From Gammaproteobacteria bacterium (GTDB taxonomy: Bacteria > Pseudomonadota > Gammaproteobacteria > Steroidobacterales > PWYM01), in NCBI GenBank assembly GCA_020832005.1, contig JAFIFN010000001.1, positions 9,775 to 73,774 of the forward strand: a stretch of 64,000 nt of DNA, read 5' to 3'. Position 1 is the stretch's first letter, and each line of letters opens with the position of its first letter. Shown here piece after piece: positions 1-44,232 of this stretch. The notes below the pieces were generated by a model, which was not told the DNA's origin, searched no databases, and saw only the letters and a list, made by a program, of their open reading frames with translations. The position numbers and the translations under genes are program-made.

Positions 1-1629
1 GGCGAGCAGGTTCTTGAGCACCTTGAGTATCGTGCCAAGTTCAAGCGTCTTGGGCACCAGGCTTTCAACGAGTTTCGGATGACTGCCGGCCAGCACATCG
101 AGGAGTTTCTGCACCTCTTCATGGCCGAGCAGTTCGTGGGCGTGCTCCTTGAGCACCCTGCTCAGGTGCGTGGCAATCACGGTGGACACATCGACCACCG
201 TGTAACCCAGCGATTGCGCCTGCTCACGGGTCGATGGCTCAATCCACACAGCATCGAGACCGAATGCCGGATCTTTCGTCGTAAGCCCTGGCACGCTGCC
301 GTAGACGCGACCCGGGTTGATCGCCAGGTCCCGGTCGGGCTGCACCTCGCCTTCGGCCAGCGGCACGCCCAGCACGCTGACCCGATACCCCGTGGGCGGC
401 AGCTCGAGGTTGTCGCGGATGTGTACGGGATGGAGCAGGAAACCGAGTTCCTGGGAGAGCTTGCGGCGCACCCCCTTGATACGTGTCATCAGGCTGCCGC
501 CCTGCGAGGCGTCTACCAGCGGAATCAATCGGTAGCCCAACTCCAGGCCGACCAGGTCGACGGCCGGCACGTCCTCCCAGGACAGCTCCCGGTCCTCACC
601 ACCGCTGAGCGGTGCCGGTGCGGCGCTTGTCGTCTCGGGCGACTCGGCGGCCTGCTGGTTGCGCCGGATCAACCAGGCCAGGCCGCCCATCAGCGCGGCC
701 AGCATCAGGAACACCGTCGCCGGCATGCCCGGCACCAGGCCCATGACGCCGATGACACCGGCGACCGTGAACAGCGCGCGCGGGTTGCTCAGCAGCTGAC
801 GGTTGACCTCCTCGCCCATGTCGCGTGCGGCAGATACCCGGGTGACGATGATGGCGGTGGCCGTGGACAGCAGCAGCGAAGGAATCTGTGCGACCAGCCC
901 GTCGCCGATCGTCAGCAGGACATAGTTCGTAGCCGCATCGCCCAGCGACATCGCGTGCGACACGGTGCCGATGATCAGGCCACCGATGATGTTGATGAAC
1001 AGGATCAGGATGCCGGCGATGGCATCGCCGCGCACGAACTTGCTGGCGCCATCCATGGAGCCGTAGAAGTCCGCCTCCTGGGCCACCTCCTCACGACGCG
1101 CCTTGGCCTCTTCCTGCGTCAGGATACCGGCGTTCAGATCGGCGTCGATGGCCATCTGCTTGCCGGGCATCGCATCCAGGGTGAAACGCGCGCTGACCTC
1201 GGAGACGCGTCCGGCGCCCTTGGTCACGACGACGAAGTTGATGATCACCAGGATCGCGAACACCACCAGACCAACCGCGTAGTTGCCCCCGATGACGAAT
1301 TCGCCGAAGGCCTCGATGACCCTGCCGGCCGCATCGGTGCCGGTATGACCGTTGAGCAGCACCACACGGGTCGATGCGATATTCAGCGCCAGACGCAGCA
1401 GCGTGGCCACCAGCAGAATGGTCGGAAACACGCTGAAGTCCAGCGGACGCGCGCTGTAGACGGACATCAGGATGACCACCAGCGCCAGAGCGATATTGAA
1501 CGTGAAAAACACGTCCAGCAGCAGCGGTGGCAGCGGGATGACCATCATGGTCAGCAGCGCGATCAGCAGCAGCGGTGTGCCCAGTCCGAGCAGTTTCAGG
1601 CGATTCCCGGGGTCTGACAGTGCGCTCAT
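1..1629 (-). CDS. flhA: Flagellar export gate protein FlhA, N-terminal ~543 codons (3' end lies beyond window start)
   Basis: Absent from the ORF track because it runs off the window. My reverse translation from ATG 1629-1627 reads MSALSDPGNRLKLLGLGTPLLLIALLTMMVIPLPPLLLDVFFTFNIALALVV...RFTLDAMPGKQMAIDADLNAG...ASKFVRGDAIAGILI, matching the FHIPEP/FlhA family. The start overlaps the flhB stop (TGATG). The listed + ORF 79-1617 is its antisense shadow. Confidence 0.93.
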   Translation of the reverse strand, partial: MSALSDPGNRLKLLGLGTPLLLIALLTMMVIPLPPLLLDVFFTFNIALALVVILMSVYSARPLDFSVFPTILLVATLLRLALNIASTRVVLLNGHTGTDAAGRVIEAFGEFVIGGNYAVGLVVFAILVIINFVVVTKGAGRVSEVSARFTLDAMPGKQMAIDADLNAGILTQEEAKARREEVAQEADFYGSMDGASKFVRGDAIAGILILFINIIGGLIIGTVSHAMSLGDAATNYVLLTIGDGLVAQIPSLLLSTATAIIVTRVSAARDMGEEVNRQLLSNPRALFTVAGVIGVMGLVPGMPATVFLMLAALMGGLAWLIRRNQQAAESPETTSAAPAPLSGGEDRELSWEDVPAVDLVGLELGYRLIPLVDASQGGSLMTRIKGVRRKLSQELGFLLHPVHIRDNLELPPTGYRVSVLGVPLAEGEVQPDRDLAINPGRVYGSVPGLTTKDPAFGLDAVWIEPSTREQAQSLGYTVVDVSTVIATHLSRVLKEHAHELLGHEEVQKLLDVLAGSHPKLVESLVPKTLELGTILKVLKNLLA

Positions 1630-5616: not shown

Positions 5617-6612
5617 TCAGCAATCGGCATCCAGCGACCCGCGTGCGATGGGCTGCAGTATCTGCAGCGCATTCTGGCCATCCGCGACCCCTACACGAGC
5701 GCGAAACAGCGGCACTTCTTCAGCGCACAACGTGACAACATCGGGGAGCTCAACCGGCAGGATGTCGCCCGCCTTGAGCTCCAGGACGCGACCCAGCGTC
5801 ATGTGGGTCTCCACCAAGCTGCTGTGGACCTCGACTTCAGCGGCCTTCATCTCATGGCGAATCGAGCGCGACCAGCGCTCGTCGCGACTGCCGCGATCAC
5901 TCTGGATACCGGCATCGAGCAGTTCGCGGATCGGCTCGAGCATCGAATAGGGCAGCGTCATGTGCAGCTCTCCATTGATGCCATCCATGTCCAGCGAGAA
6001 CGAGGAGATCACCACTACTTCGGTGGGACTGACGATATTGGCGAACTGCGGGTTGACCTCCGAGTTGATGTACTCGAACTCCACCGGCATCAGCGCCGTC
6101 CACGCCTCCGTCATATCGGCGAACACGCGAGCGAGCGTCATCTCGATGACCCTGTTTTCCATTGCCGTGAACTCACGCCCCTCGACGCGATTCTGGAACC
6201 GGCCATCACCACCGAAATAGTTGTCTACCAGCGCGAACACCAGGCGAGCATCGAGTACGATCAGGCCGGTACCGCGCAACGGCGAGACGCGAATCATGTT
6301 CAATGACGTGGGAAGGGCCAGCGTATGCGTGTACTCAGAGAACTTAGCCAGACGCACGCCCTGGAAAGAAATATCTACCGCCCGGTGAACCAGGTTGAAC
6401 AGGCTGACCCGAAAGCTGCGCGAGAAGCGATTGCCAATCATCTCCAGCGTCGGCATGCGACCGCGAACAATTCGTTCATGCGCCGTCAGGTCCACCGCTC
6501 GGGCTACACCATCGCGCAAGTGCAGGTCATTCTCTGTACTCACATCACCGCTGTCGACCCCATGCAGCAGGGCATCGATCTCATCCTGGGACAGAATTTC
6601 GTTGACGGACAT
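5617..6612 (-). CDS. fliM: Flagellar motor switch protein FliM
   Basis: 331 aa. N-terminal LSQDEIDALL (CheY-P binding motif), a central FliM domain and a C-terminal SpoA-like domain. Confidence 0.95.
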   Translation of the reverse strand: MSVNEILSQDEIDALLHGVDSGDVSTENDLHLRDGVARAVDLTAHERIVRGRMPTLEMIGNRFSRSFRVSLFNLVHRAVDISFQGVRLAKFSEYTHTLALPTSLNMIRVSPLRGTGLIVLDARLVFALVDNYFGGDGRFQNRVEGREFTAMENRVIEMTLARVFADMTEAWTALMPVEFEYINSEVNPQFANIVSPTEVVVISSFSLDMDGINGELHMTLPYSMLEPIRELLDAGIQSDRGSRDERWSRSIRHEMKAAEVEVHSSLVETHMTLGRVLELKAGDILPVELPDVVTLCAEEVPLFRARVGVADGQNALQILQPIARGSLDADC

Positions 6613-7168: not shown

Positions 7169-7184
7169 AGCAATAGTCGTGCCA
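7169..7184 (-). promoter_or_regulatory. sigma54 (RpoN) -24/-12 promoter of the fliLMNOPQR-flhB operon: TGGCAC-gacta-TTGCT
   Basis: Reverse complement of agcaatagtcgtgcca, a perfect consensus 35-50 nt upstream of the fliL ATG. An unusually AT-rich block (7190-7235) lies just upstream. Confidence 0.8.
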
Positions 7185-8320: not shown

Positions 8321-8336
8321 AGCAAGTCCTGTGCCA
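8321..8336 (-). promoter_or_regulatory. sigma54 -24/-12 promoter of fliK: TGGCAC-aggac-TTGCT
   Basis: Reverse complement of agcaagtcctgtgcca, in the fliJ-fliK gap ~55 nt upstream of ATG 8269. Confidence 0.8.
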
Positions 8337-14962: not shown

Positions 14963-14978
14963 AGCAAAACCCGTGCCA
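14963..14978 (-). promoter_or_regulatory. sigma54 -24/-12 promoter of the activator-fliEFGHIJ operon: TGGCAC-gggtt-TTGCT
   Basis: Reverse complement of agcaaaacccgtgcca, ~50 nt upstream of ATG 14914. An AT-rich block (14981-15030) lies just upstream and contains an IHF-like AATCAGTAAATAA. Confidence 0.8.
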
Positions 14979-15077: not shown

Positions 15078-16598
<1,521 letters not shown>

Positions 16599-16711
16599 GC
16601 TGCCCCATCCCTGAAAGCTCGCCGACCCCGTCCCTAACGAGCCGCAGTGTCCCCCATATGCGACAGTAACTTCAATAGGGAGGACCCGCAATGTCGCAGG
16701 GGGAAACCCTT

Positions 16712-17804: not shown

Positions 17805-17820
17805 AGCAAAATTCGTGCCA
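17805..17820 (-). promoter_or_regulatory. sigma54 -24/-12 promoter of the fliT-PilZ-like operon: TGGCAC-gaatt-TTGCT
   Basis: Reverse complement of agcaaaattcgtgcca, in the fliS-fliT gap ~85 nt upstream of ATG 17718. Confidence 0.8.
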
Positions 17821-21765: not shown

Positions 21766-23328
21766 TCAATGCGCGTCCGGCAGCATCGCCAGTATTCTTT
21801 GCCGGGCGCGCTCGAAGGCGTGCGCGAACAGTGGTGCCTGCGCCTGATAGGCGTCCGTGAGGCAACCGAATGCCGCGGTAACCTGAACTCTGGCCTCGTC
21901 GCTGCCCGCCATGCCGACCACCTCCGGACGCACGCTGCGCGCAGCGTCGTTGGCGCACATCGCATCCCAGTCCAGACCATGCACCTCAAGCATGCGCCGC
22001 ACACAGCTGTCAGGATCGGCCACCAGGTCTTCGTAGGACAGTACGCTCACGCGTTCGGGAAACAGCGCCTGCCAGTGCGCAGCCAGGCGCTCATACACAA
22101 GTATGTATTCGGCGATCAGGTCCACATCCCAGGCGTAGGGATGAGGCTGCTCGAAGTACTTCAGGTAGATGGCCAGCGCGTTGGCAAAGTGCTCACGGCG
22201 ACAGATCACCAGTCTTGTCTGAGGATTGAGCATCATGAGCATGCCGGCGTAGATGATGTTGCCAGGAGTCGTCACCAGATGAGTGACAACGCCCGGGGCG
22301 GGTGCCTCGCCCCATGCAGCCTCCAGCAGGGTTCCAAGCCGGTCCATCGCCATCGCATCGAGGTTGCGTAGCGAGTCGGGGTAGGCGGCCAGCAGTCCTT
22401 GGCCTGATTTGCGCAGCACCTCGTCGATGACATCGCGCTCGCCCCAGCCACGGATCGCCGGATGCGCCCCGAGCGCGCCTTCCAGCAGGCTCTTGCCGGC
22501 ACGCGGGGGGCCCAGCACCAGGGTGAGGCCCCTGTCTGATCGAGTCCGAACGCATCCGGCGGCGACGAATTCTGGCTGAAACACGTCGATGACACGCGTC
22601 GCGAGGCGAATCAGCAATCCACCGCGCAGGCGCTCGACCTCGGTGCGTTCATGTTCACACATCAAGCGGTTGCCTGCCTGACAGGCCTTGAACGAAGCAA
22701 GCGAATCCCCACCATCCTGGTACATCTTGCTCAATGCGAACTGCAACATTGCGCGCTCCCGAAGAGACAGCCGATCGCGCTGCAGCAGCTTGCGCAGCTG
22801 CTTGATCTGAGCCCCTGCGCCGGCGAAATGCCGGGTCTGCGAGTATCGAAGCCAAAGCTCGGCATCGTCGCGCCGCACGGCCAGCAGCGCCGCCAGAAAA
22901 GCACTCGCCTCCTCCATGCGTCCCAGCGCCCGCAGAGCCATTGCATACAGCCTCATCGCCTGCTGGCTCTCGGGGTTCAGCCGCATTGCCTCACGCAGCG
23001 CGGCGGCGGAAGCTTCGTAACGACCCAGTTCGTAGAACGTACTTCCGACCAGTTCGAATACGCCCGCATCGGCGTCCGGAAGACTGAGCAGCTGCGCGGC
23101 GTACTGCAGCGCCGTGTTGTGCATGCGCAGTTGCAGGGACAGCAGCGTCAGCGACGTCAGCGCCCCGCGATTCTGGGGGTCGCGCTCAAGCACCTGGCTC
23201 AACAACTCTACTGCATCGAGCTTGCGGTCCTCGTCAACAGCCTGGCTGGCTTCAGTGAGCAGGGAGCGAAGCTCTGATGCCGGTGCCGCTGCCGCTGCCG
23301 ACAGGCGTGGCCGGGTCGCCGCCATCAT
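21766..23328 (-). CDS. TPR-repeat / sulfotransferase-domain fusion protein (candidate flagellin-modifying enzyme)
   Basis: 520 aa. The N-terminal ~200 aa are TPR-like (AVELLSQVLERDPQNRGAL; YELGRYEASAAALREAMRLNPESQQA; LGRMEEASAFLAALLAVRRDDAE). The C-terminal half has a PAPS 5'-phosphosulfate-loop-like LVLGPPRAGKSLLEGALGAHP, then VICRREHFANALAIYLKYF and YEDLVADPDSCVRRMLEVHGLDWD, as in TPR-containing sulfotransferase families. The ATG overlaps the flgL stop (ATGA). Confidence 0.7.
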   Translation of the reverse strand: MMAATRPRLSAAAAAPASELRSLLTEASQAVDEDRKLDAVELLSQVLERDPQNRGALTSLTLLSLQLRMHNTALQYAAQLLSLPDADAGVFELVGSTFYELGRYEASAAALREAMRLNPESQQAMRLYAMALRALGRMEEASAFLAALLAVRRDDAELWLRYSQTRHFAGAGAQIKQLRKLLQRDRLSLRERAMLQFALSKMYQDGGDSLASFKACQAGNRLMCEHERTEVERLRGGLLIRLATRVIDVFQPEFVAAGCVRTRSDRGLTLVLGPPRAGKSLLEGALGAHPAIRGWGERDVIDEVLRKSGQGLLAAYPDSLRNLDAMAMDRLGTLLEAAWGEAPAPGVVTHLVTTPGNIIYAGMLMMLNPQTRLVICRREHFANALAIYLKYFEQPHPYAWDVDLIAEYILVYERLAAHWQALFPERVSVLSYEDLVADPDSCVRRMLEVHGLDWDAMCANDAARSVRPEVVGMAGSDEARVQVTAAFGCLTDAYQAQAPLFAHAFERARQRILAMLPDAH

Positions 23329-33999: not shown

Positions 34000-34932
34000 T
34001 CAATGACGCCGCGAGTTGAGAAGAAACTCGGTGACGGCCCCGGCGAACTCGTCAGGATCGAATTTCGCGAGCAGACGATCAGCGCCTGCCTCGTGACACG
34101 CGCGACTGTTGAAGCGACCGCTCAGCGAGGAATGCATCATCACGAAAAGCTGCGCCAGGCGCGGATCCTTGCGGATCTCACGCACCAGCGTATAGCCGTC
34201 CATCTGCGGCATCTCAATATCGGAGATCACCATCGAGACACGTTCGTCAACGCTGCCAGTATCGGCCCAGTACCTGAGTCGGTCCAGCGCCTGGACCCCA
34301 TCATTGCACAGGATCGCATCCACCCCGATGTCCTGCAGGGCGCGGCTGATCTGATTGCGGGCCACCGCTGAGTCATCGGCGACCAACGCGCATCGTGGAC
34401 GCTCGCCCAGGGTTTTGCGGGCATGGATAGCGATCTGCGTGGACACACCGGCGCCCGGACCGGTCACCAGATTCAGCACCCGTTCGACGTCCAGGATCTG
34501 CACCAGGCGGTTGTCGATAAGCGTGATCGCCGTGACATGAGACTGTTCCGGATCGTCAACGGGAGGCGGATGGACGCTATCCCAGCCGGTATTGACGATA
34601 CGCTCGATGCCGCTGACCAGCAGCCCCTGGATGGAGCGGCTGAACTCGGTGAGCACGATGTAGTCGGCCTGCCGTGCCGGCAATGAGGGCTGGCCGATGG
34701 AGCGGGCGAGGTCGAGCACCGGAACCGTCACACCGCGAATCCGCGCCAGCCCCGCGACCAGCGGATGGGCATTTGGAAAACGGCGTAATGGCGCGGCCTG
34801 GACGACTTCCCGGACCTTGAAGACGTTGATGCCGTAGAGCTGGTCATGGCCGAGACGGAACAATAGCAGCTCAAGCCGGTTCTGGCCCACAAGTCGCGTC
34901 AGGCGGTCAACATTTTCGAGCACCTGGGCCAC
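34000..34932 (-). CDS. cheV: Chemotaxis coupling protein CheV (CheW-like domain + receiver)
   Basis: CheW-like domain (LELLLFRLGHDQLYGINVFKVREV...) followed by REC (ALVADDSAVARN...VISDIEMPQMDGYTL...). I place the start at GTG 34932 (GGAG 5 nt upstream), because a sigma28 promoter at 34977-35003 lies inside the longer ORF listed to 35013. Confidence 0.88.
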   Translation of the reverse strand: MAQVLENVDRLTRLVGQNRLELLLFRLGHDQLYGINVFKVREVVQAAPLRRFPNAHPLVAGLARIRGVTVPVLDLARSIGQPSLPARQADYIVLTEFSRSIQGLLVSGIERIVNTGWDSVHPPPVDDPEQSHVTAITLIDNRLVQILDVERVLNLVTGPGAGVSTQIAIHARKTLGERPRCALVADDSAVARNQISRALQDIGVDAILCNDGVQALDRLRYWADTGSVDERVSMVISDIEMPQMDGYTLVREIRKDPRLAQLFVMMHSSLSGRFNSRACHEAGADRLLAKFDPDEFAGAVTEFLLNSRRH

Positions 34933-34976
34933 TGAGACTCCAAGAAACTGGTGGGGGAACACGCGATGCACGAGGG

Positions 34977-35003
34977 GTATCGACCACTTGCGCATAAACT
35001 TGA
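34977..35003 (-). promoter_or_regulatory. sigma28 promoter of cheV: TCAAGTT-N12-GTCGATAC
   Basis: Reverse complement of gtatcgac-N15-ttga. Confidence 0.75.
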
Positions 35004-35034
35004 TCGCCAACACGGATCACCGGCGCATAAGAAC

Positions 35035-35050
35035 TGGCACATCTATTGCA
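35035..35050 (+). promoter_or_regulatory. sigma54 -24/-12 promoter of flgA: TGGCAC-atcta-TTGCA
   Basis: Perfect consensus read on the plus strand, 56 nt upstream of the flgA ATG. Lies back-to-back with the cheV sigma28 promoter, with 31 bp between them. Confidence 0.8.
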
Positions 35051-36267: not shown

Positions 36268-36708
36268 ATGTCCGCCCACGATCCGCAGCAACTGCACCAA
36301 CCCGAGTCCACGCACAGCGGTGCTGGCGCCGCGCTGCAGCAGTTGCTGACGCTTCTCGAGGCCCTCGAGGACGCGCTCGGGCATGAAGCGAAGGCCCTGG
36401 TAGCTGGAGACATGGCGGCGCTTTCGACGCATACCATCACCAAGCGGGCGCTGCTGCGCGAACTCCAGGGACGCATGAGCCCGAACAGCGTATCTTTTTC
36501 GGGCCAGGATGTGCCGGAACTGCTTGCAAGGCTGCATCGCTGCCATGCGCTGAATCAGTCAACCGGTGCGGCCATCTACAGCGCAATGCGTCACAACGCC
36601 CAGGTGCTGAGCATGCTCGGCTATGACTCCGGCCCGGTCGCATATGCGCCGCACGGCAGCTCATCGACAGGTATCACCCACAGCGGCCGCAGCCTGGCAA
36701 GCGCCTGA
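36268..36708 (+). CDS. flgN: Flagellar chaperone FlgN (FlgK/FlgL-specific)
   Basis: 146 aa, helical. LLTLLEALEDALGHEAKALVAGDMAAL... The ATG directly abuts the flgM stop. Confidence 0.8.
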   Translation: MSAHDPQQLHQPESTHSGAGAALQQLLTLLEALEDALGHEAKALVAGDMAALSTHTITKRALLRELQGRMSPNSVSFSGQDVPELLARLHRCHALNQSTGAAIYSAMRHNAQVLSMLGYDSGPVAYAPHGSSSTGITHSGRSLASA

Positions 36709-36751
36709 CGACGACCTGCCGCAAAGCTTCCGCACCGTCATCGGTGGCTCC

Positions 36752-36778
36752 TCAAGTTAGTACCCCCAGTGCCGATAC
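36752..36778 (+). promoter_or_regulatory. sigma28 promoter of the MCP-PilZ unit: TCAAGTT-N12-GCCGATAC
   Basis: Read directly on the plus strand, with a perfect -10. It lies inside the ORF-track version of the MCP (start 36769), which argues for the ATG at 36814. Confidence 0.8.
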
Positions 36779-36813
36779 CTCTTGCATCACCACCCAACCA
36801 GGTGTTCGCGCTT

Positions 36814-37971
36814 ATGGCAAACAAGGATTCTGTGCTGTTGACCGCAACGCTGGTCGCCGCTTTGGCCGTGGCCAGCCTGCTGGCCATCACCGCCATCTTT
36901 GGCCGCTGGCTGGAAGCTGCGCTTGCTGCGCTTGCGCTGCTGGCAACGGCGGCAGCCCTGTGGCGTACATTGGTTCGGACGTCGGCGTCAAAAGTCTCCC
37001 GCGATCAGGTGATCGAGCTCGTCCGCGGCCTGGATACCGAGCTTGACCAGGACGTCGAGGGCATCGAGCTTGAGATCCACCGCGTACAGAAGCTGATCGC
37101 CGGGGCCGTCGCCGAGCTCTCGGCCAGCTTCACCCGCCTGCACGCCATCGCCCGCTCGCAGGGAGAGCTGCTGGAGCGAAGTCTTGGCACCGGTCCCGAC
37201 AGCCAGGCACAGGACAGTGTCGGTAGCGAGGCGTCGGTGGATGCGCTGCATGGTTTCATGGAGGCGCTTGTGAGTGTCAGCGGGCAGAGCGTTGCCATGG
37301 CGGCCGATACCGAAAATATGCTCACGCACCTGCACGGTATTTTTCGCGTACTCGAAGAAGCACGCAGCCTCGCCGAGCAGACCAACCTGCTGGCGCTGAA
37401 CGCGAGCATCGAGGCCGCCAGGGCTGGCGAGGCCGGTCGCGGGTTTGCGGTAGTCGCCGATGAAGTGCGCAAGCTCTCGCAGCGATCCGCCGAGTTTAAT
37501 GAGCAGATCCGCGAAAGAGTCGAGGAGACACGTGAAGCCGTTGCCCGGGTACAGAACAATGCGCACACACTCGCCTCGTTTGATCTGGAAAAGACCACAG
37601 CCGAGAAGAATCGTATCAGTCGCGCCCTGAAACGTGCCGAGAGCGCGAGGAGTGAGATACGACAGAAACTGATGACAGAGCTCGCCCCCATCAACGAAAA
37701 CCTGCATAGCACTGTGGCCGATGCAGTGCGTTCACTGCAGTTCCAGGACAGCTCCACCCAGGCCCTGACCACCGCTGCTGAAGCGATCTCACGACTTACG
37801 GACCTGCGTGTCGAGGTACAGTCTGCTGTCCGGGGTACATCCGACCCTTTGAGCTGGATCCCGGTCTTGACCGAGAAACTCAGTACTCTGCGAACCCGTC
37901 GCCGCACGCGCATGCGATCGAGGCCTGTGGCCCAGACCTCGATGACGCAAGGCAGCGTCGAGCTTGTCTGA
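36814..37971 (+). CDS. Methyl-accepting chemotaxis protein lacking a periplasmic ligand-binding domain (TM hairpin + MCP signalling domain)
   Basis: 385 aa from ATG 36814 (MANKDSV). Two TM helices are separated by only GRW. The highly conserved tip is [44 protein letters not shown]. Basic C-terminal tail without an NWETF-type pentapeptide. Confidence 0.88.
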
Positions 37972-37999
37972 TCGTTCACATACTTCGACGGCAAGCCAC

Positions 38000-38659
38000 A
38001 TGACAATCACTCTCCCGCAGATCGGTACACGCATGAGTGTCGAGAGCGCGCACCTGTCCGGGCGTTTCTGGTCGACGCTGATCGGCTACCGAAAGGGCAG
38101 TTATGTCATGCTCGAGACACCAGAGACAAAAATCCCGCCCGGTCTCAGCGTGGCGTTCTCAGAACAGGATGTGCTTACTATCCGGTACGTAGAAAACGGT
38201 ACCGTCGTAGGCTTCCGTACGCCGGTGCTCGGGCGCATACGCGCCCCCGTAATGCTGATCGTCGCGGCATATCCTCACCATGTCCATACGCATGCGCTGC
38301 GTCAGCACCCCAGGTTGAGCTGTTACCTGCCCTGCCATGGACGGATAGGCGAACATGTTTTCACTCGCGCAATCCTGCGCGATGTCAGTGTTCACGGCTG
38401 CCAGCTGCGCATCCCGGTGGAAAACCTGCCCCCGGAAGGCAAACAGAAGTTACTGGAGGGCGAGATCGAAATCGAGCTGGCCCTGCTGGGCGAACACGGG
38501 TCGAATACTATCGATCAGTGCATCAACGGACGCGTGGTGGGCCTGGAGTCGCAACGCGGCTATGCCATGTTGCGCGTCCATACCGATGCTGATCTCAACG
38601 AACTGATGAGCTATCTGAGCGCCTTCACTGCCCGCATCGAGTTCAGCTCCACCGCTTAG
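38000..38659 (+). CDS. YcgR/FlgZ-type PilZ-domain protein (c-di-GMP-dependent flagellar brake family)
   Basis: YcgR-N-like domain (GRFWSTLIGYRKGSYVMLETPE) followed by a PilZ domain with RxxxR (LRQHPR) and DxSxxG (RDVSVHGC). The first ATG is at 38000. The ORF track uses TTG 37964, which would overlap the MCP stop by 8 nt. Confidence 0.8.
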   Translation: MTITLPQIGTRMSVESAHLSGRFWSTLIGYRKGSYVMLETPETKIPPGLSVAFSEQDVLTIRYVENGTVVGFRTPVLGRIRAPVMLIVAAYPHHVHTHALRQHPRLSCYLPCHGRIGEHVFTRAILRDVSVHGCQLRIPVENLPPEGKQKLLEGEIEIELALLGEHGSNTIDQCINGRVVGLESQRGYAMLRVHTDADLNELMSYLSAFTARIEFSSTA

Positions 38660-38672
38660 CCAACCTGCCCCC

Positions 38673-39569
38673 TCACTCGGCTGCGCACTCCTGTGTAGCC
38701 AAGGCCAGGATGTCATCGCCAACGCTTGGATCCAGCCCGAGCGCGTGCATGTCCAGCGGGTTCGCCGGTGCGAGATCGGCCGCAAAGCTGCCAGGCAGTC
38801 GGCCAGAAAGCTGGTCAGCCAAGGCGATGATCCGCGCCAGGAGACCCGACGCATCGTCGCTGAATTGCGCCTCGTGATGACCTGCTACCAGGGAGACAGT
38901 CCAGTCGGGAAACTTCCAGGTCCGCAGCGCCGCCGCCCCGACCTGTGCGTGATCCATGCCAAGATGCGCACGCTCACTCGCAAGATAACCGTCGGGCTCA
39001 TGAGACACGGCAGTCACCACGTCGCAGAAGCCCTGGCGATCGAGCTGGATCATCACGATATGACCGACATCATGCAGCAACCCCCCAAGAAAGGCGCGCT
39101 GTGGGTCAACCCCCGGCACGTGCAGCGCAAGGCGGCGCGCGACAGCGGCCGTGGTCCTGGCATGCATCCAGAGGCAGCGGGCGTCGAAACGCTCGCACAA
39201 CCTGCCCTGTTTGAAAAGCCGCCTCAGCGTCGCGGCGTAAATGAGGTTCCGCAGGGCTTCGAATCCAAGCACGCGCAGCGCCTGGTGCAGGGACTCGACC
39301 TGCCGGGAAAGCCCGTAGAACGGTGAATTCGCCACTGCCAGCACATTGCTGGACAAAGCCACATCCTGCTTGAGCAGTTGCAGGACACGAAGATCCGAAA
39401 TATCCGGATCACGCATCTCCGCCATCAGCTGGGCTGCGAAATCGCCGATCGTCGGCAACCGCCTTGCACGGAAGTTACCAGTGCTGTCAAACGCTGCGGC
39501 CAGACCCTGTCGCGGTGACCGGCGAGGCGTTTCCGCTGGCGCCTGGCTACCGGGAAGCTCCCCATTCAT
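38673..39569 (-). CDS. HDOD domain protein (paralogue 2)
   Basis: LLKQDVALSSNVLAVANSPFYGLSRQVESLHQALRVLGFEALRNL...GGLLHDVGHIVM is the HDOD pattern. ATG 39569 (GGAGGCGGAAG upstream) is preferred; the ORF-track start 39620 would overlap the upstream paralogue by 23 nt. Confidence 0.8.
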   Translation of the reverse strand: MNGELPGSQAPAETPRRSPRQGLAAAFDSTGNFRARRLPTIGDFAAQLMAEMRDPDISDLRVLQLLKQDVALSSNVLAVANSPFYGLSRQVESLHQALRVLGFEALRNLIYAATLRRLFKQGRLCERFDARCLWMHARTTAAVARRLALHVPGVDPQRAFLGGLLHDVGHIVMIQLDRQGFCDVVTAVSHEPDGYLASERAHLGMDHAQVGAAALRTWKFPDWTVSLVAGHHEAQFSDDASGLLARIIALADQLSGRLPGSFAADLAPANPLDMHALGLDPSVGDDILALATQECAAE

Positions 39570-39597
39570 ACCACTTCCGCCTCCACATCCTGGTTTA

Positions 39598-40521
39598 TCA
39601 ATGACCATTGGCGAATTCACCCTGCAGCCTTCCCAGTTCAGCCCTGACCTGCTGTTGCAGGGCCTGCCGTCGAGTCCACCGGAAGTTCAGACAGCTCAGC
39701 AGTTCTACATCCGGCACGCCGGGTTCGGAAGTGAACTGCAGACCGATACCCGAATCGCATACCAGGCAATCGGCCAGCGCCACGACGCCCACCAGGGCCC
39801 GCACGCCCGAAGGCTGTGCCATGGGCTCATGGTGGTGTCGGACAGCTTCCACTATGCCTTCCGGCAGGCGCCATCCGGCCAGTACCTCGGCGGCGATCTG
39901 AGCATGGTCGGCGCCGAAGGCCTGGCGCTCGAGTTTAATCCAGCCGCGCGGACCCGTGGGGCCCGGCCCGGCACGGCCTTCGGCGACCAGCCCACACAGC
40001 GTCTCGAACTCGCCGTAGAGTTGCAGCAGCAAGCCGAAGTCGTGCAGCAGGCCAGCGAGGAAAGCATCCTCGGGCGCAAGTCTGGGGTGGGTGGCCGCAA
40101 GCATACGTGCCGTGACCGCGACACCCAGGCAGTGTGTCAGTACATCCGAGGCGGAAAATCCGGAGCCTATGCTGGGCAGACTGGGCATGCGATAGCAGCT
40201 GGCTGCCAGCGCGATCCCACGAATCGTCGGCAGCCCGAGGACGACCACAGCGCGCTCGATCGAGGAGATCGTACGGGGTTGGCCATAGTAGGCACTGTTG
40301 ACCACCTTGAGCACGCGAGCAGCCAGCGAGACATCCCGGCTGATGATACGGCTGATGCTGGCAGCACTGCCATGCTCACCGGCCAGTGTGCCGATGAGTT
40401 CGGCAATCGACACGTCGACACAGGGCAGGCGTGCAGCCATCCGGGCAATACGTTCATTGCAGCCCGGGGGTGGTACTGCCATGGCGTCTGCGCCGTTCGA
40501 GCCTGGATTCGATGCGTGCAT
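39598..40521 (-). CDS. HDOD domain protein (paralogue 1)
   Basis: 307 aa. SRIISRDVSLAARVLKVVNSAYYGQPRTISSIERAVVVLGLPTIRGI...AGLLHDFGLLLQL. Begins 23 nt after the motB stop. Confidence 0.8.
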   Translation of the reverse strand: MHASNPGSNGADAMAVPPPGCNERIARMAARLPCVDVSIAELIGTLAGEHGSAASISRIISRDVSLAARVLKVVNSAYYGQPRTISSIERAVVVLGLPTIRGIALAASCYRMPSLPSIGSGFSASDVLTHCLGVAVTARMLAATHPRLAPEDAFLAGLLHDFGLLLQLYGEFETLCGLVAEGRAGPGPTGPRGWIKLERQAFGADHAQIAAEVLAGWRLPEGIVEAVRHHHEPMAQPSGVRALVGVVALADCLVCDSGIGLQFTSEPGVPDVELLSCLNFRWTRRQALQQQVRAELGRLQGEFANGH

Positions 40522-40544
40522 GACTTGTGACCGCGGTCCGCGCC

Positions 40545-41387
40545 CTATTCGAGCGCGACCAGCCCCTGTGCGGCGGCGCGCATCGCCGCTTCCGCCTGGT
40601 CGTTGAGTACCAGGATCGAGATGCGTCGATTGATGGGGTGCTCGGGACGATCCTCGAGCAACGGCACCGTCGAGCCCAGGCCTACGACCCGGCCGAGTTT
40701 CGTTTCATCCAGCCCGCCGCCAACGAGGGCGCGTCTGGCCGCGTTGGCCCGGTCTACCGACAGTTCCCAGTTGCTGTAGCCGGGCCGGTTCAGCGGCAGG
40801 GCGTCGGTGTGGCCGGAGATGCTGATGCGGTTACGCACCTTGTTCAAGGTGACCGCGAGCTCCCCGATCAGGGACTCAGCGTAGCCCTCCAGCGTGGCAC
40901 TGCCCAGCGCGAACATCGAGCGACGTTCCTGGTCGACAATCTGGATACGCAGACCCTCGGGCGTGATGTCGATCAGCAGATGCTCGGCATACTGAGTCAT
41001 CGACGCCTTTTCGCGCAGGGCAAGCTCTAGCTCTTCGCGCAGCGCCTCGAGCGCGGACCGGTTGTCCTCGGCGACCATCGCCTGATCGTTTGCCTCGCGT
41101 GGCAACTCCATGCTGCCGCCAAGATCAATGACCGCGCTGCTGGGTCCACCATCACCCAGGGAGGCCGCTGCCGGCGGCATCGTACTCGTGCCCATGACGG
41201 CCGAAGGATTGTTGAAGAACTCCGAGATCGCACCCTTCTGGGCCTCATCGGTGGAAGCCATCAGCCACAACAGCAGGAAAAACGCCATCATCGCAGTGGC
41301 GAAATCGGCAAAGGCCACTTTCCAGGAGCCGCCGTGATGGCCATCGACCTTGTAGATCCGCTTGATGACAATGGGCTGGGCACTCAT
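40545..41387 (-). CDS. motB: Flagellar stator protein MotB
   Basis: 280 aa. GGSWKVAFADFATAMMAFFLLLWLM, with the conserved proton-channel Asp, and a C-terminal OmpA-like peptidoglycan-binding domain (ISISGHTDALP...NWELSVDRANAARRAL). Confidence 0.93.
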   Translation of the reverse strand: MSAQPIVIKRIYKVDGHHGGSWKVAFADFATAMMAFFLLLWLMASTDEAQKGAISEFFNNPSAVMGTSTMPPAAASLGDGGPSSAVIDLGGSMELPREANDQAMVAEDNRSALEALREELELALREKASMTQYAEHLLIDITPEGLRIQIVDQERRSMFALGSATLEGYAESLIGELAVTLNKVRNRISISGHTDALPLNRPGYSNWELSVDRANAARRALVGGGLDETKLGRVVGLGSTVPLLEDRPEHPINRRISILVLNDQAEAAMRAAAQGLVALE

Positions 41388-41405
41388 GCTGACAAGGCTC
41401 CGTAA

Positions 41406-42275
41406 TCAGGCCGCAGCCGCCGCAGGGGCGCCCTTGAGTTCCTGTTCCAGCTCTTCGAAGTTGGGGCGAATCTCCGGCGGGATCGCCTTACGACCGAATT
41501 CGACCGCGACCTTGGGTGCATACCCGCGCAGGCTCGCCAGGATGCAGGTCTTGATGGTGGCGTAGTACTGGGTCTCCTCTTCGCCCTGGCGGCTCAGCGC
41601 GGTGGCCAGCGGACCCACAAAACCGTAGGCCAGCAGAATCCCGAGAAAACTGCCGACCAGCGCCGCCGCCACCATCTTGCCGATCTCCTCGATCGGCCCG
41701 CCAAGCGCACCCATCGTGTTCACGATGCCAAGCACGGCTGCCACGATCCCGAAGCCGGGAAGCGCATCGGCGACACGATTGACGGCATGGCCGGGCTCGG
41801 CGGCTTCATGATGATGGCTGTCGAGTTCGATATCCATCAGGTTTTCAAGCTGGAAGGCATCCATATCGCCACTGATGATCAGCCGCATGTAGTCGCGTAT
41901 GAAAGTGACGGCGTGATGGTCCTTGAGCAGGCCTGGATAGGCCTGAAAGAGCTCGCTGCTGTCTGGGTCGTCAATATCCGCCTCGATGGCGAGCATGCCG
42001 TCTTTGCGAGCCTTGGTGAACAGCGCGAACATGAAACGCAGCAACTCGACATAGTCCGGGCGTTTGTAGCGTGGGCCTTTCATCATCGCCGGAATGGCTT
42101 TCAGGACCTTGAACACCGTCGCCTTGGGATTGGCGATCACGAAAGCACCTATTGCCGCACCGCCGATAATCACAAGCTCGTAGGGCTGCCAGATCGCCAG
42201 CAGCTGGCCGCCATGAGCCATGAAGCCGCCGAATACACAGACGATGACAACGATACTGCCGATGATCAGATTCAT
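41406..42275 (-). CDS. motA: Flagellar stator protein MotA
   Basis: 289 aa with four TM segments. MotA/TolQ/ExbB channel block ...GPIEEIGKMVAAALVGSFLGILLAYGFVGPL. Confidence 0.93.
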   Translation of the reverse strand: MNLIIGSIVVIVCVFGGFMAHGGQLLAIWQPYELVIIGGAAIGAFVIANPKATVFKVLKAIPAMMKGPRYKRPDYVELLRFMFALFTKARKDGMLAIEADIDDPDSSELFQAYPGLLKDHHAVTFIRDYMRLIISGDMDAFQLENLMDIELDSHHHEAAEPGHAVNRVADALPGFGIVAAVLGIVNTMGALGGPIEEIGKMVAAALVGSFLGILLAYGFVGPLATALSRQGEEETQYYATIKTCILASLRGYAPKVAVEFGRKAIPPEIRPNFEELEQELKGAPAAAAA

Positions 42276-42407
42276 ACCTGGCGTGCTTCCCGCGCAATCG
42301 TATGGGTCCCGGGCACCGCAAGGCGGGGCCTGCGGCTCTCAATGGCGGGAAAAGCCGGCCGGCCAGGCAGCGAACGGGCGCAACCGGGCAGCATCCCACC
42401 TTGCGCT

Positions 42408-42434
42408 ATGTCGACAGGCGGGCGACGAACTTGA
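42408..42434 (-). promoter_or_regulatory. Probable sigma28 promoter of motAB-HDOD-HDOD: TCAAGTT-N12-GTCGACAT
   Basis: Reverse complement of atgtcgac-N15-ttga, ~135 nt upstream of the motA ATG. It shares the extended TCAAGTT -35 with the other sites, and the -10 has 2 mismatches. The -35 lies in a 13-bp palindrome, CTTGAG-A-CTCAAG. Confidence 0.55.
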
Positions 42435-42464
42435 GACTCAAGCTTCGCGAGACGGGACCTCGCC

Positions 42465-43217
42465 TCAGAGTGCTGCCCGCACCCGGGCGAGATCTTCCGG
42501 CGTATCGACACCGCCTGGCGGCACCTCGCAGGCATCGGCGACCTGGATACGCAGACCCATCCACAGGGCGCGCAGCTGCTCGAGCTTCTCGAGCTGCTCG
42601 AGCTCACAGGGCGGTGCCGCGGCCAGTCTTTGCAGGGCGGCAACGCGGTAGGCATAGATGCCGACGTGTCGGCGATGCACGGCGAGCGCTGCGGCCTGTT
42701 CGGCATCGCGCGGGTAAGGGATGACGGCACGACTGAAATACAGCGCCCGGCCATCGGCGGCAGTGACCAGCTTGACCACATTCGGGTCGGCGAGCTCATC
42801 GCTGCCCGCCAGTGGCGCCGCCAGCGTCGCGATCGCCACGTCGGCAGACACACGCGCAAGCTCGGCCACCTGTGCAATGACTGCCGGGGGAATCAGCGGC
42901 TCGTCGCCCTGCACATTCACGACCACGCAGGCAGCGGGCCATTCAAGACGCCTGGCCACCTCGGCGACACGGTCGGTGCCCGATACGTGGCTGGCATCGG
43001 TGAACAGTACATTGGCACCAAAGCCGCGGGCGGCCCGTTCGATACGTTCGTCGTCGGTGGCAATCCAGACCTCGGCTGCGCCGCTGTCGCAGGCACGTCG
43101 CCAGACGTGCTCGATCATGGGCCGACCGGCCAGCGCCAGCAGCGGCTTGCCGGGCAGTCGCACGGAAGCATAGCGCGCAGGAATGACGACCCGAAAATCC
43201 GCATGCGCCTCAATCAT
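42465..43217 (-). CDS. kdsB: 3-deoxy-manno-octulosonate cytidylyltransferase (CMP-KDO synthetase)
   Basis: FRVVIPARYASVRLPGKPL... ATG 43217 behind GAGGAG. 8-nt overlap with the lpxK stop. Confidence 0.92.
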   Translation of the reverse strand: MIEAHADFRVVIPARYASVRLPGKPLLALAGRPMIEHVWRRACDSGAAEVWIATDDERIERAARGFGANVLFTDASHVSGTDRVAEVARRLEWPAACVVVNVQGDEPLIPPAVIAQVAELARVSADVAIATLAAPLAGSDELADPNVVKLVTAADGRALYFSRAVIPYPRDAEQAAALAVHRRHVGIYAYRVAALQRLAAAPPCELEQLEKLEQLRALWMGLRIQVADACEVPPGGVDTPEDLARVRAAL

Positions 43218-44232
43218 CGCAAGCTCCTCGCGTACACCCCGCACGCGTACTCGCCATCACGGCATCGAGCAGCGCTGCCCCGTCGCCTGCCGAGAACTGC
43301 GCCTGCACAGGCAGATACCAGTGCCTGGGCAGGCTCATGGCATGGCACTTCACGGCATCTTTCTCCGTCATGACGACAGGATGATCATCATCAAACAGCA
43401 GGTCGCCGGCGCGCAGTTTCGCATGGTCGGCCAGCGGATGGGCCAGCACCTGCACCCCGGCCTGCTCCAGCGTGGCGAAAAAGCGCTGCGGGTTGCCAAT
43501 GCCGGCCACGGCGTGCACCGTCTGGCCGCGCAGACGCTCAAGGGGCATGTTCGGGCTACCGGAGAGCGAAACCAGGTCTCCGGGCACCAGCTGCATGTGC
43601 ACACTGCCTGCCGGCATCCAGGCCTCACGCTGCGCACCATTGACGACGAGCGCATCGACTTCGCCCAGGCGTGCAACGGGTTCGCGCAATGGCCCGGCCG
43701 GCAGACACAGGCCATTGCCCAGACCACGCTCACCGTCCACCACGACGATCTCCATGGCCCGCGCCATGGCGTAGTGCTGCAGCCCGTCGTCGCTGATTGC
43801 AAGCGCCACCCCTTCCTCTCCAAGCCGCCGCACGGCCGCAGAGCGATCAACACACACGACAACCGGCACGCCCGTGCGTCGTGAGATCAGCAGCGGCTCA
43901 TCGCCGACCTCCGCCGCCGAGTCGCTGCCGGCAAGCAGCCTTGGCTGACGCAGCTCACGACCACCGTAGCCGCGACTGACGACGCCCACGTGCACCTGGC
44001 GTGCGCGCAACTGCTCGACAAGCCAGATCACCAAAGGGGTCTTGCCGGTACCACCGACACTGATATTGCCCACGACCACCACGGGCACCCGGGCTGCGCC
44101 ATCGAGCGGTCCGCGGCGCAGGTATCGCCTGCGCCGGAGGCTCACGACGACGATGAACAGCAAGGACACGGGCCACAGTGCCCAGCGCCAGGCACTGCGT
44201 CCATACCACAGTCGCGCCAGCCAGCCCGGCAC
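43210..44232 (-). CDS. lpxK: Tetraacyldisaccharide 4'-kinase
   Basis: 340 aa. VVVVGNISVGGTGKTPLVIWLVEQL P-loop typical of LpxK. Confidence 0.92.
   Translation of the reverse strand: MPGWLARLWYGRSAWRWALWPVSLLFIVVVSLRRRRYLRRGPLDGAARVPVVVVGNISVGGTGKTPLVIWLVEQLRARQVHVGVVSRGYGGRELRQPRLLAGSDSAAEVGDEPLLISRRTGVPVVVCVDRSAAVRRLGEEGVALAISDDGLQHYAMARAMEIVVVDGERGLGNGLCLPAGPLREPVARLGEVDALVVNGAQREAWMPAGSVHMQLVPGDLVSLSGSPNMPLERLRGQTVHAVAGIGNPQRFFATLEQAGVQVLAHPLADHAKLRAGDLLFDDDHPVVMTEKDAVKCHAMSLPRHWYLPVQAQFSAGDGAALLDAVMASTRAGCTRGACDD

Follow-up and report, generated by a model that had tools for sequence, protein, structure and literature searches.

Two HDOD genes behind motA and motB

The DNA analyzed here is a 64-kb stretch (64,000 nucleotides, "the window" below) of contig JAFIFN010000001.1 from an uncultured gammaproteobacterium. 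On its minus strand, the flagellar stator genes motA and motB are followed by two further genes, here called HDOD1 and HDOD2, each of which encodes a stand-alone protein with the HDOD domain, a very common bacterial signaling domain whose biochemistry is undefined. The four genes lie head to tail in the order motA (41406 to 42275), motB (40545 to 41387), HDOD1 (39598 to 40521), and HDOD2 (38673 to 39569), with gaps of 18, 23, and 28 nt between them as read from the sequence. The stop codon of HDOD2 (38673) is only 13 bp from that of a convergent gene for a PilZ protein (38659); the corresponding gap in the relative L007 is 91 nt. A preliminary description of this DNA, made from the letters alone, had given the same four open reading frames (ORFs), the same gaps, and the same distance to the convergent stop codon, all of which we confirmed on the sequence.

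MotA (289 amino acids [aa]; Pfam MotA_N and MotA_ExbB) and MotB (280 aa; Pfam MotB_plug and OmpA) are identified as stator proteins by equivalog hidden Markov models (HMMs), both of which scored above their curated cutoffs (TIGR03818, 398 bits versus 303.8; NF006548, 312.6 bits versus 277). The start codon of HDOD1 (307 aa as the full ORF) is uncertain, because in-frame ATG codons occur at codons 1, 14, and 28 and none is preceded by a clear Shine-Dalgarno sequence. HDOD2 (298 aa) has a GGAGG Shine-Dalgarno sequence (39580 to 39584, minus strand) 10 nt before its ATG, as read from the sequence, with GGAGG or AGAGG at the equivalent place in the relatives L007 and L017; a GTG at 39620 is a second possible start. 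A 10-bp palindrome, GACCGCGGTC, in the motB/HDOD1 gap is missing from these same two relatives, and we therefore treated it as a chance occurrence rather than a conserved element.

The 189-nt intergenic region between kdsB and motA contains a sigma-28 (FliA)-type promoter-like motif (42408 to 42434, minus strand; TCAAG-N14-GTCGACAT), a putative promoter in which the -10 element is mismatched at three of eight positions. When the window was scanned for T[AC]AAG-N13-15-GCCGATAA-like sites, 10 were found (2.2 ± 1.4 expected), and seven of these had the canonical 14-nt spacing (TAAAG/TCAAG-N14-GCCGATAA type). Six of the seven stand directly upstream of fliC, flgK, flgM, cheV, a gene for a methyl-accepting chemotaxis protein (MCP), and motA, and the seventh, which is antisense inside motB, is probably a chance match. 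Related loci carry similar motifs upstream of motA (TCAAG…GTCGATAC in L007 and L008; TAAAG-N14-GCCGACAC in L009). Downstream, the minus strand has no sigma-28-like motif from the motA promoter to the end of HDOD2 (42408 to 38673), and a consensus scan of positions 36500 to 43500 revealed neither a sigma-70-like promoter nor a terminator on the operon strand. No credible sigma-54 site was found in the operon either, the sole match (39807 to 39821) having two mismatches and lacking the -12 GC, and sigma-54-like sites occur across the window as often as expected by chance. There is no hairpin between the convergent operons at the 3′ end (z-score, +1.5), and Rfam gave no match anywhere in the window. 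All promoter scans used simple consensus patterns, which real promoters can escape. The absence of promoter and terminator motifs from the gaps and the presence of a sigma-28-type site before motA had both been part of the preliminary description and were borne out by these scans (sigma-70, sigma-28, sigma-54, and terminator). Its claim that the HDOD genes are cotranscribed with the stator genes stands to the extent of an operon-like layout behind a sigma-28-type motif, on sequence evidence alone; cotranscription of motA-motB-HDOD1-HDOD2 from that putative promoter is the simplest reading.

Both downstream proteins are HDOD proteins by HMM and by fold, as had been proposed. With PF08668 (curated cutoff, 22.9 bits), HDOD1 scored 154.7 bits (E = 2.8e-45; profile positions 1 to 196 of 196) and HDOD2 scored 177.8 bits (E = 2.3e-52; positions 1 to 195), and both also passed the general Pfam HD model (PF01966; 42 and 47 bits, respectively). 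The Pfam search showed no receiver, GGDEF, or EAL domain in either protein, again as expected from the preliminary description. AlphaFold2 models (mean pLDDT, 86 for HDOD1 and 87 for HDOD2) were compared with the PDB by using Foldseek, and the top 12 matches for each were HDOD entries only (among them 3HC1, 9QZK, 3M1T, 3P3Q/3LJX, 3MEM, 3I7A, and 1VQR); HDOD structures matched with E values of ≤1e-4, whereas catalytic HD and HD-GYP enzymes reached only 0.02 to 0.08. Membership in the HD-GYP phosphodiesterases was rejected, since neither protein has a GYP motif (HHE is followed by PMAQPSGVRAL in HDOD1 and by AQFSDDASGLL in HDOD2), Pfam assigned only HDOD and HD, and the HD-GYP structure 4R8Z matched HDOD2 only at an E value of 0.04 to 0.08.

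The best structural match of both proteins, 3HC1, is also the best PDB sequence match of HDOD2 (E = 5e-30), and its structure holds two iron ions through five histidines and one aspartate (PMC12075610). In the alignment with 3HC1, the H, HD, H, HH, and D ligand positions are all present in HDOD1 and HDOD2, the ligands being assigned from the HD superfamily motif and the published description rather than from coordinates. Moreover, H130, H160, D161, H206, H230, H231, and D251 are invariant in the HDOD1 orthologue group, as are H136, H166, D167, H170, H207, H231, H232, and D252 in the HDOD2 group. The retained five-histidine-plus-aspartate set (H…HD…H…HH…D) places both proteins in a predicted metal-binding, 3HC1-type subgroup. 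HDOD2 also has four cysteines (C125, C132, C182, and C295) that are conserved in its orthologue group, two of them invariant and two present in ≥90% of members, and C132 lies one helical turn ahead of the ligand H136; these cysteines could make up a redox-responsive site or a further site for metal.

We also compared the window with the 83%-identical relative L007, to which its synonymous distance (dS) is about 0.6 to 1.1. The ratio of nonsynonymous to synonymous divergence (dN/dS) was 0.18 for HDOD1 and 0.09 for HDOD2, values comparable to those of KdsB (0.13) and LpxK (0.16), with 0.02 for motA and 0.04 for motB. By this measure, HDOD1 and HDOD2 are real genes under purifying selection and not chance ORFs.

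A GGDEF-EAL gene between the HDOD orthologues of relatives

In related loci, the HDOD genes recur in several gene orders. Arrangement A, that of the window and of L007/L016, L008, and L017, reads kdsB, motA-motB-HDOD1-HDOD2, and then the convergent PilZ and MCP genes. The full form, seen in L012, is motA-motB-HDOD1-(PAS-GGDEF-EAL)-HDOD2-(EAL-HDOD), in which the successive junctions from motB through the EAL-HDOD gene are a 2-nt gap, an 11-nt overlap, a 14-nt overlap, and a 3-nt gap. Arrangement B (L004, L009, and L021) is motA-motB-(GGDEF-EAL)-HDOD2. In arrangement C (the groups L001-3/L019, L005/6/L018, L010/11, and L013/14/L020), kdsB is followed by two PAS hybrid histidine kinase genes, at the place that motAB occupies in the other arrangements, and then by HDOD1-(PAS-GGDEF-EAL)-HDOD2-(EAL-HDOD). 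A gene for a hybrid GGDEF-EAL protein, i.e., a predicted bifunctional enzyme of cyclic di-GMP (c-di-GMP) turnover, thus lies between or beside the orthologues of the two window genes. Window HDOD1 shares 46 to 50% full-length identity with the "HDOD291" genes upstream of the enzyme gene (L001, L010, L012, and L013), and HDOD2 shares 50 to 61% identity with the genes downstream of it (L001, L004, L005, L009, L010, L012, and L013), which overlap or abut its 3′ end. No gene other than the GGDEF-EAL gene, and motB in some loci, directly adjoins an HDOD gene in relatives. The enzymes are 56 to 66% identical to one another, with GGDEF, EALVR, DDFGTG, EGVE, and QG[YF] motifs intact and Pfam scores of 137 to 221 bits, whereas the EAL domain encoded by the trailing EAL-HDOD gene is degenerate, reading ELLFR, lacking DDFGTG, and matching Pfam only in part (38 bits). 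Among the matches listed in a database search with the L009 enzyme, the closest distinct protein was P0170 (≤45% identity) and the others were generic GGDEF-EAL proteins; the known 66%-identity orthologues were not among them.

The two window proteins belong to separate orthologue groups. HDOD1 and HDOD2 are 32% identical over 225 residues, and in a comparison of 166 HDOD proteins each had dozens of closer relatives elsewhere, with members of the HDOD2 group ranking 67th or lower for HDOD1 and members of the HDOD1 group 38th or lower for HDOD2. As a separate observation, two or three tandem stand-alone HDOD genes also occur, without nearby mot genes, in Ignavibacteriales, Melioribacteraceae, and related Bacteroidota-type metagenome-assembled genomes (MAGs) (L038, L041-L043, L047, L058, and L067), so that tandem HDOD genes are not unique to the clade of the window.

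Phylogenetic profiling showed motAB linked to HDOD genes in the full form as well as in arrangements A and B, even where MotB identity has dropped to 53%. When the HDOD2 alignment was run against 185,579 species-representative genomes, six MAGs with orthologues of ≥56% identity emerged; the other 74 loci held generic HDOD genes (≤39% identity), none of which, other phyla included, had mot genes within 10 kb. An equivalent scan of metagenome contigs returned one weak match (37% identity), and the arrangement count consequently rests on about a dozen lineages. One 90%-identical relative is labeled Woeseiaceae. We concluded that the arrangement is real and conserved, yet confined to a small uncultured clade.

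The window has both HDOD orthologues of the HDOD1-(GGDEF-EAL)-HDOD2 module and not its enzyme gene, and it is a reduced derivative of that module rather than a full member. Several observations bear on the direction of this difference, and together they indicate an ancestral order of motAB-HDOD1-enzyme-HDOD2 from which the enzyme gene was lost in the window lineage. First, gene loss has left visible remnants elsewhere in the clade. Between motB and the enzyme gene of L009, an 82-aa ORF (5898 to 6146 of that locus) is a C-terminal remnant of HDOD1 (46 to 48% identity to its last 37 to 44 residues), and it overlaps the GGDEF-EAL start by the same 11 nt as intact HDOD1 genes do, perhaps for the sake of translational coupling. 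In arrangement C, fused fragments of motA and motB persist upstream of HDOD1, between it and the second histidine kinase gene (about 3075 to 3350 in L001; 5120 to 5365 in L019), where residues 94 to 123 of MotA (E = 5e-13), 262 to 289 of MotA (1e-8), and 2 to 22 of MotB (2e-10) can be recognized. Second, in a tree of HDOD2 rooted with HDOD1 (one neighbor-joining tree, with no bootstrap support), L004 falls outside the clade of the window, in agreement with the identities of MotB (53 to 55% versus 74 to 77%) and KdsB (63 to 65% versus 67 to 72%). Since this outgroup carries the enzyme gene, parsimony favors a single loss in the window clade over two gains, and HDOD1 and HDOD2 would be adjacent in the window because the gene between them was lost.

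The convergent PilZ gene and the proposed role of the HDOD pair

The gene that converges on HDOD2 (37964 to 38659, plus strand; 219 to 231 aa, with the start at 38000 [219 aa] preferred by gene callers) encodes a YcgR-like protein with PilZNR (PF12945, E = 1e-11) and PilZ (PF07238, E = 1.3e-7) domains, in which the c-di-GMP-binding motifs RQHPR (RxxxR) and DVSVHG (DxSxxG) are both intact. It is kept near the HDOD module in arrangements A and C and in the full form. The unit is headed by a short MCP gene (385 to 400 aa, signaling domain only; PF00015 MCPsignal, E = 3e-25; callers' start near 36814, giving 385 aa) that, together with a sigma-28-like motif (36752 to 36778; TCAAG-N14-GCCGATAC, one mismatch), occupies 36752 to 37971 of the plus strand. 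The two convergent operons are thus both apparently sigma-28 driven and may give transcripts with overlapping 3′ ends. With respect to a sigma-28 motor-brake circuit, the PilZ part is present in the window (PilZNR and PilZ, both motifs, and a sigma-28-like motif upstream), while the enzyme part is absent from the 64 kb and present in L012, L009, L004, and L021.

We tentatively favor the interpretation that HDOD1 and HDOD2 are accessory sensor or adaptor proteins of a clade-specific, stator-operon c-di-GMP module and that they still act on motility. The HDOD orthologues that flank and overlap an intact GGDEF-EAL gene, together with the convergent PilZ gene, support the link to c-di-GMP, and the earlier guess of c-di-GMP-linked accessory factors thereby gains ground. 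Under this interpretation, HDOD1 and HDOD2 would be two distinct, ancient HDOD lineages, and the ancestral operon, motA-motB-HDOD1-(PAS-)GGDEF-EAL-HDOD2 with overlapping genes, would in some lineages have had a degenerate EAL-HDOD gene behind it. Probably read from a sigma-28 late-flagellar promoter, it would have yielded the enzyme and its two HDOD partners together with the stators, and the c-di-GMP level set by this module would have been read by the neighboring, sigma-28-driven, YcgR-like PilZ brake. The HDOD proteins would bind the GGDEF-EAL enzyme as metal-, redox-, or nucleotide-sensing adaptors and would not themselves be the main phosphodiesterase. In the window lineage, deletion of the enzyme gene would have left the flanking HDOD genes adjacent, and the pair may still modulate swimming, whether through an enzyme from another locus or by direct action on the motor or the PilZ brake.

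Several points weigh against this interpretation. All carriers are uncultured MAGs, and the role is read from sequence. Searches of the window and L007 HDOD1/HDOD2 junctions with the ends of the enzyme gene (tblastn and blastn) gave nothing better than an E value of about 0.1, so that no scar of the enzyme gene is detectable there and its loss is read from phylogeny, i.e., from the one neighbor-joining tree. With the enzyme proteins of relatives as queries, tblastn detected no related GGDEF or EAL gene in the window. The EAL-HDOD/SCO1/MCP720 block could have been either lost in the window lineage or gained elsewhere. Finally, a fully conserved di-metal site would be superfluous for a pure adaptor, and SadB serves as an adaptor although the pocket of its HDOD domain is degenerate (PMC12075610).

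The strongest of the other explanations, possible though distinctly less likely, is that HDOD1 and HDOD2, singly or as a heterodimer, bind MotA, MotB, or the rotor and, on sensing a metal or redox signal, adjust torque or stator recruitment, without c-di-GMP. The HDOD genes come right after motB, with short gaps, in every arrangement A locus, both have remained under purifying selection after the loss of the enzyme, and overexpression of the stand-alone HDOD protein PSPTO_4229 ends swimming without a c-di-GMP-type change in Congo red staining (PMC11813219). On the other hand, arrangement C keeps the HDOD genes and the enzyme although its motAB genes have decayed to scars, HDOD1 is dispensable in arrangement B, and the one immediate neighbor of the HDOD genes in relatives, motB in some loci aside, is the GGDEF-EAL gene. 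The stator-associated role put forward in the preliminary description is accordingly weakened, because relatives in which motAB has decayed retain the HDOD module, with two hybrid histidine kinase genes instead.

It is unlikely that the HDOD genes are bystanders for general signaling at the edge of the flagellar cluster, transcribed from their own promoter inside motB and without a role in motility. The generic HDOD homologues of the 74 other genomes have no mot genes nearby, arrangement C has kept the module without motAB, and consensus scans like ours can miss real promoters, all of which such an explanation would accommodate. It would not account for the short gaps and Shine-Dalgarno spacing that are kept across diverged arrangement A loci (dS of about 0.7 to 1.1), for a linkage to motAB that the full form shares with arrangements A and B even at a MotB identity of 53%, or for the proximity of a PilZ motor-brake gene in most arrangements.

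We also consider it doubtful that HDOD1, HDOD2, or both are phosphohydrolases (of c-di-GMP or of pGpG, the product of EAL enzymes, for example) that continue nucleotide turnover without the EAL enzyme. All metal ligands are invariant in both orthologue groups, the Pfam HD model is passed, two iron ions are bound in 3HC1, the nearest relative of known structure (PMC12075610), and a pGpG hydrolase role has been proposed for HDOD beside EAL (PMC2952852). Nevertheless, no HDOD protein is known to have such an activity, the domain has been described as noncatalytic (PMC6543031), no GYP follows the HHE motif, and catalytic folds match far less well than HDOD folds (E values of 0.02 to 0.08 versus ≤1e-4). 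A related idea, to which we give an equally low probability, is that the pair forms a metal-centered heterodimer, possibly di-iron, that makes up the working core of the module and serves at the stator as a redox, O2, or iron sensor or as a hitherto unrecognized pGpG or c-di-GMP phosphohydrolase; if true, it would explain the survival of both genes and of every ligand after the loss of the enzyme and would be the first defined biochemical activity for the HDOD domain. A recent origin of the pair by duplication of one HDOD gene in tandem, in keeping with the duplicated pair of the preliminary description and suggested by the adjacency, common strand, similar length, and identical domain content of the two genes, is refuted to near certainty by their 32% identity, by their low cross-group ranks (67th and 38th at best), and by the fixed place of each orthologue group on either side of the enzyme gene.

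A number of other features of the window and its relatives were recorded. The MCP-PilZ gene pair lies near the HDOD module in most relatives, and in arrangement C a small Xre-like ORF stands between the two genes. The longest ORFs of cheV (34000 to 35013, minus strand, 337 aa) and of the MCP gene (36769 to 37971, plus strand, 400 aa) probably overshoot the true starts, orthologues being called at 310 and 385 aa, respectively; the sigma-28-like motifs of both genes fall inside these 5′ extensions. Five perfect sigma-54-type sites (TGGCAC-N5-TTGC; 7170 to 7184, 8322 to 8336, 14964 to 14978, and 17806 to 17820 on the minus strand and 35035 to 35049 on the plus strand) are all in the flagellar cluster, including one shortly before flgA, and a FleQ-like sigma-54 activator gene is found at 15078 to 16691 (minus strand), consistent with a sigma-54/sigma-28 flagellar hierarchy. 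A TPR and sulfotransferase family gene between the flgK region and fliC (21766 to 23328, minus strand) may be a flagellin modification gene, and a 512-aa ORF adjoining flhB (79 to 1617, plus strand) has no Pfam match at E ≤ 1e-5.

Comparison with known systems

In the literature library that was searched in full text, HDOD genes have not been described as part of a mot operon or on both sides of a GGDEF-EAL gene, in line with the preliminary description, which had regarded an HDOD pair in a mot operon as an undescribed arrangement. That description had also called HDOD a domain of no defined activity; its biochemistry indeed remains undefined, but motility phenotypes and the adaptor role of SadB have since to be taken into account (PMC11813219, PMC11004494, PMC12075610). 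The clade provides a natural variant series (the full module, a module without HDOD1, one without motAB, and, in the window, one without the enzyme gene) that points to a testable partnership of two HDOD proteins with a bifunctional GGDEF-EAL protein, with stators and a YcgR-like readout, and in the window variant the HDOD pair has been worth keeping without the enzyme. The weight of the finding is limited by its uncultured MAG carriers, by the tiny size of the clade, and by the fact that links of HDOD to c-di-GMP and to motility are already known.

Among stand-alone HDOD proteins, PSPTO_4229 of Pseudomonas syringae DC3000 and PFL_0554 and PFL_5871 of Pseudomonas protegens Pf-5 alter swimming (PMC11813219, PMC11004494), and the effect of PSPTO_4229 depends on residues with a predicted role in protein contacts (PMC11813219). 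Like the window proteins, they are single-domain HDOD proteins of about 270 to 300 aa with a link to motility; unlike them, they were found by phenotype and have not been reported in a mot operon or flanking a GGDEF-EAL gene, a comparison made here by description. Motility phenotypes are also attached to GsmR, Cj0248, and SadB (PMC11004494, PMC11813219, PMC6543031). Loss of the HDOD protein alters flagellar motility in the case of both GsmR, a receiver-HDOD protein of Xanthomonas campestris, and Cj0248 of Campylobacter jejuni (1VQR), as cited in PMC11004494; GsmR differs from the window proteins in carrying a receiver domain and acting on flagellar gene expression (PMC11004494), and Cj0248 is a distant structural match of the window models (E = 1e-5 to 1e-6).

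SadB of Pseudomonas (YbaK-HDOD; PDB 9QZK) shares the HDOD fold and is the second-best structural match of the window proteins (query-normalized TM-score, 0.71 to 0.72). Acting through protein-protein contacts, it controls whether cells are motile or form biofilms (PMC12075610, PMC6543031), and its HDOD domain is part of a protein adaptor, SadB being a proteolysis adaptor (PMC12075610). SadB has an extra YbaK-like domain, three of its five pocket histidines are lost, and its pocket is occluded, whereas in the window proteins, which have a single domain, no ligand has been lost. The di-iron protein 3HC1, from Geobacter sulfurreducens, is closer to them in this respect, but it is a structural genomics entry without a known function or a link to motility, and identity to it is about 25%.

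Fusions of EAL domains to HDOD are frequent; a 2010 census counted them in 128 of 1,805 EAL-only proteins and in no hybrid GGDEF-EAL protein (PMC2952852). EAL-HDOD fusions thus also tie HDOD to c-di-GMP phosphodiesterase domains, and a degenerate EAL-HDOD gene accompanies the module in the full form and in arrangement C. Such fusions, which we take to have the COG3434 / YuxH-PdeH architecture, differ from the main link in the relatives, where neighborhood and overlapping codons connect the HDOD genes to a hybrid GGDEF-EAL gene; the window has neither fusion nor enzyme.

In Escherichia coli, the c-di-GMP-degrading enzyme PdeH (YhjH) and the PilZ brake YcgR form a motor-brake circuit under sigma-28, both being encoded by late flagellar genes. 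The window is without an enzyme gene, a defining part of this circuit, and the enzyme of the clade is instead a bifunctional GGDEF-EAL protein encoded in the stator operon between two HDOD genes. The ancestral operon would nonetheless have followed the same logic, with the motor protected from or exposed to c-di-GMP. Taken together, these comparisons suggest a modest variation, in one small clade, that ties the HDOD domain to motor control.

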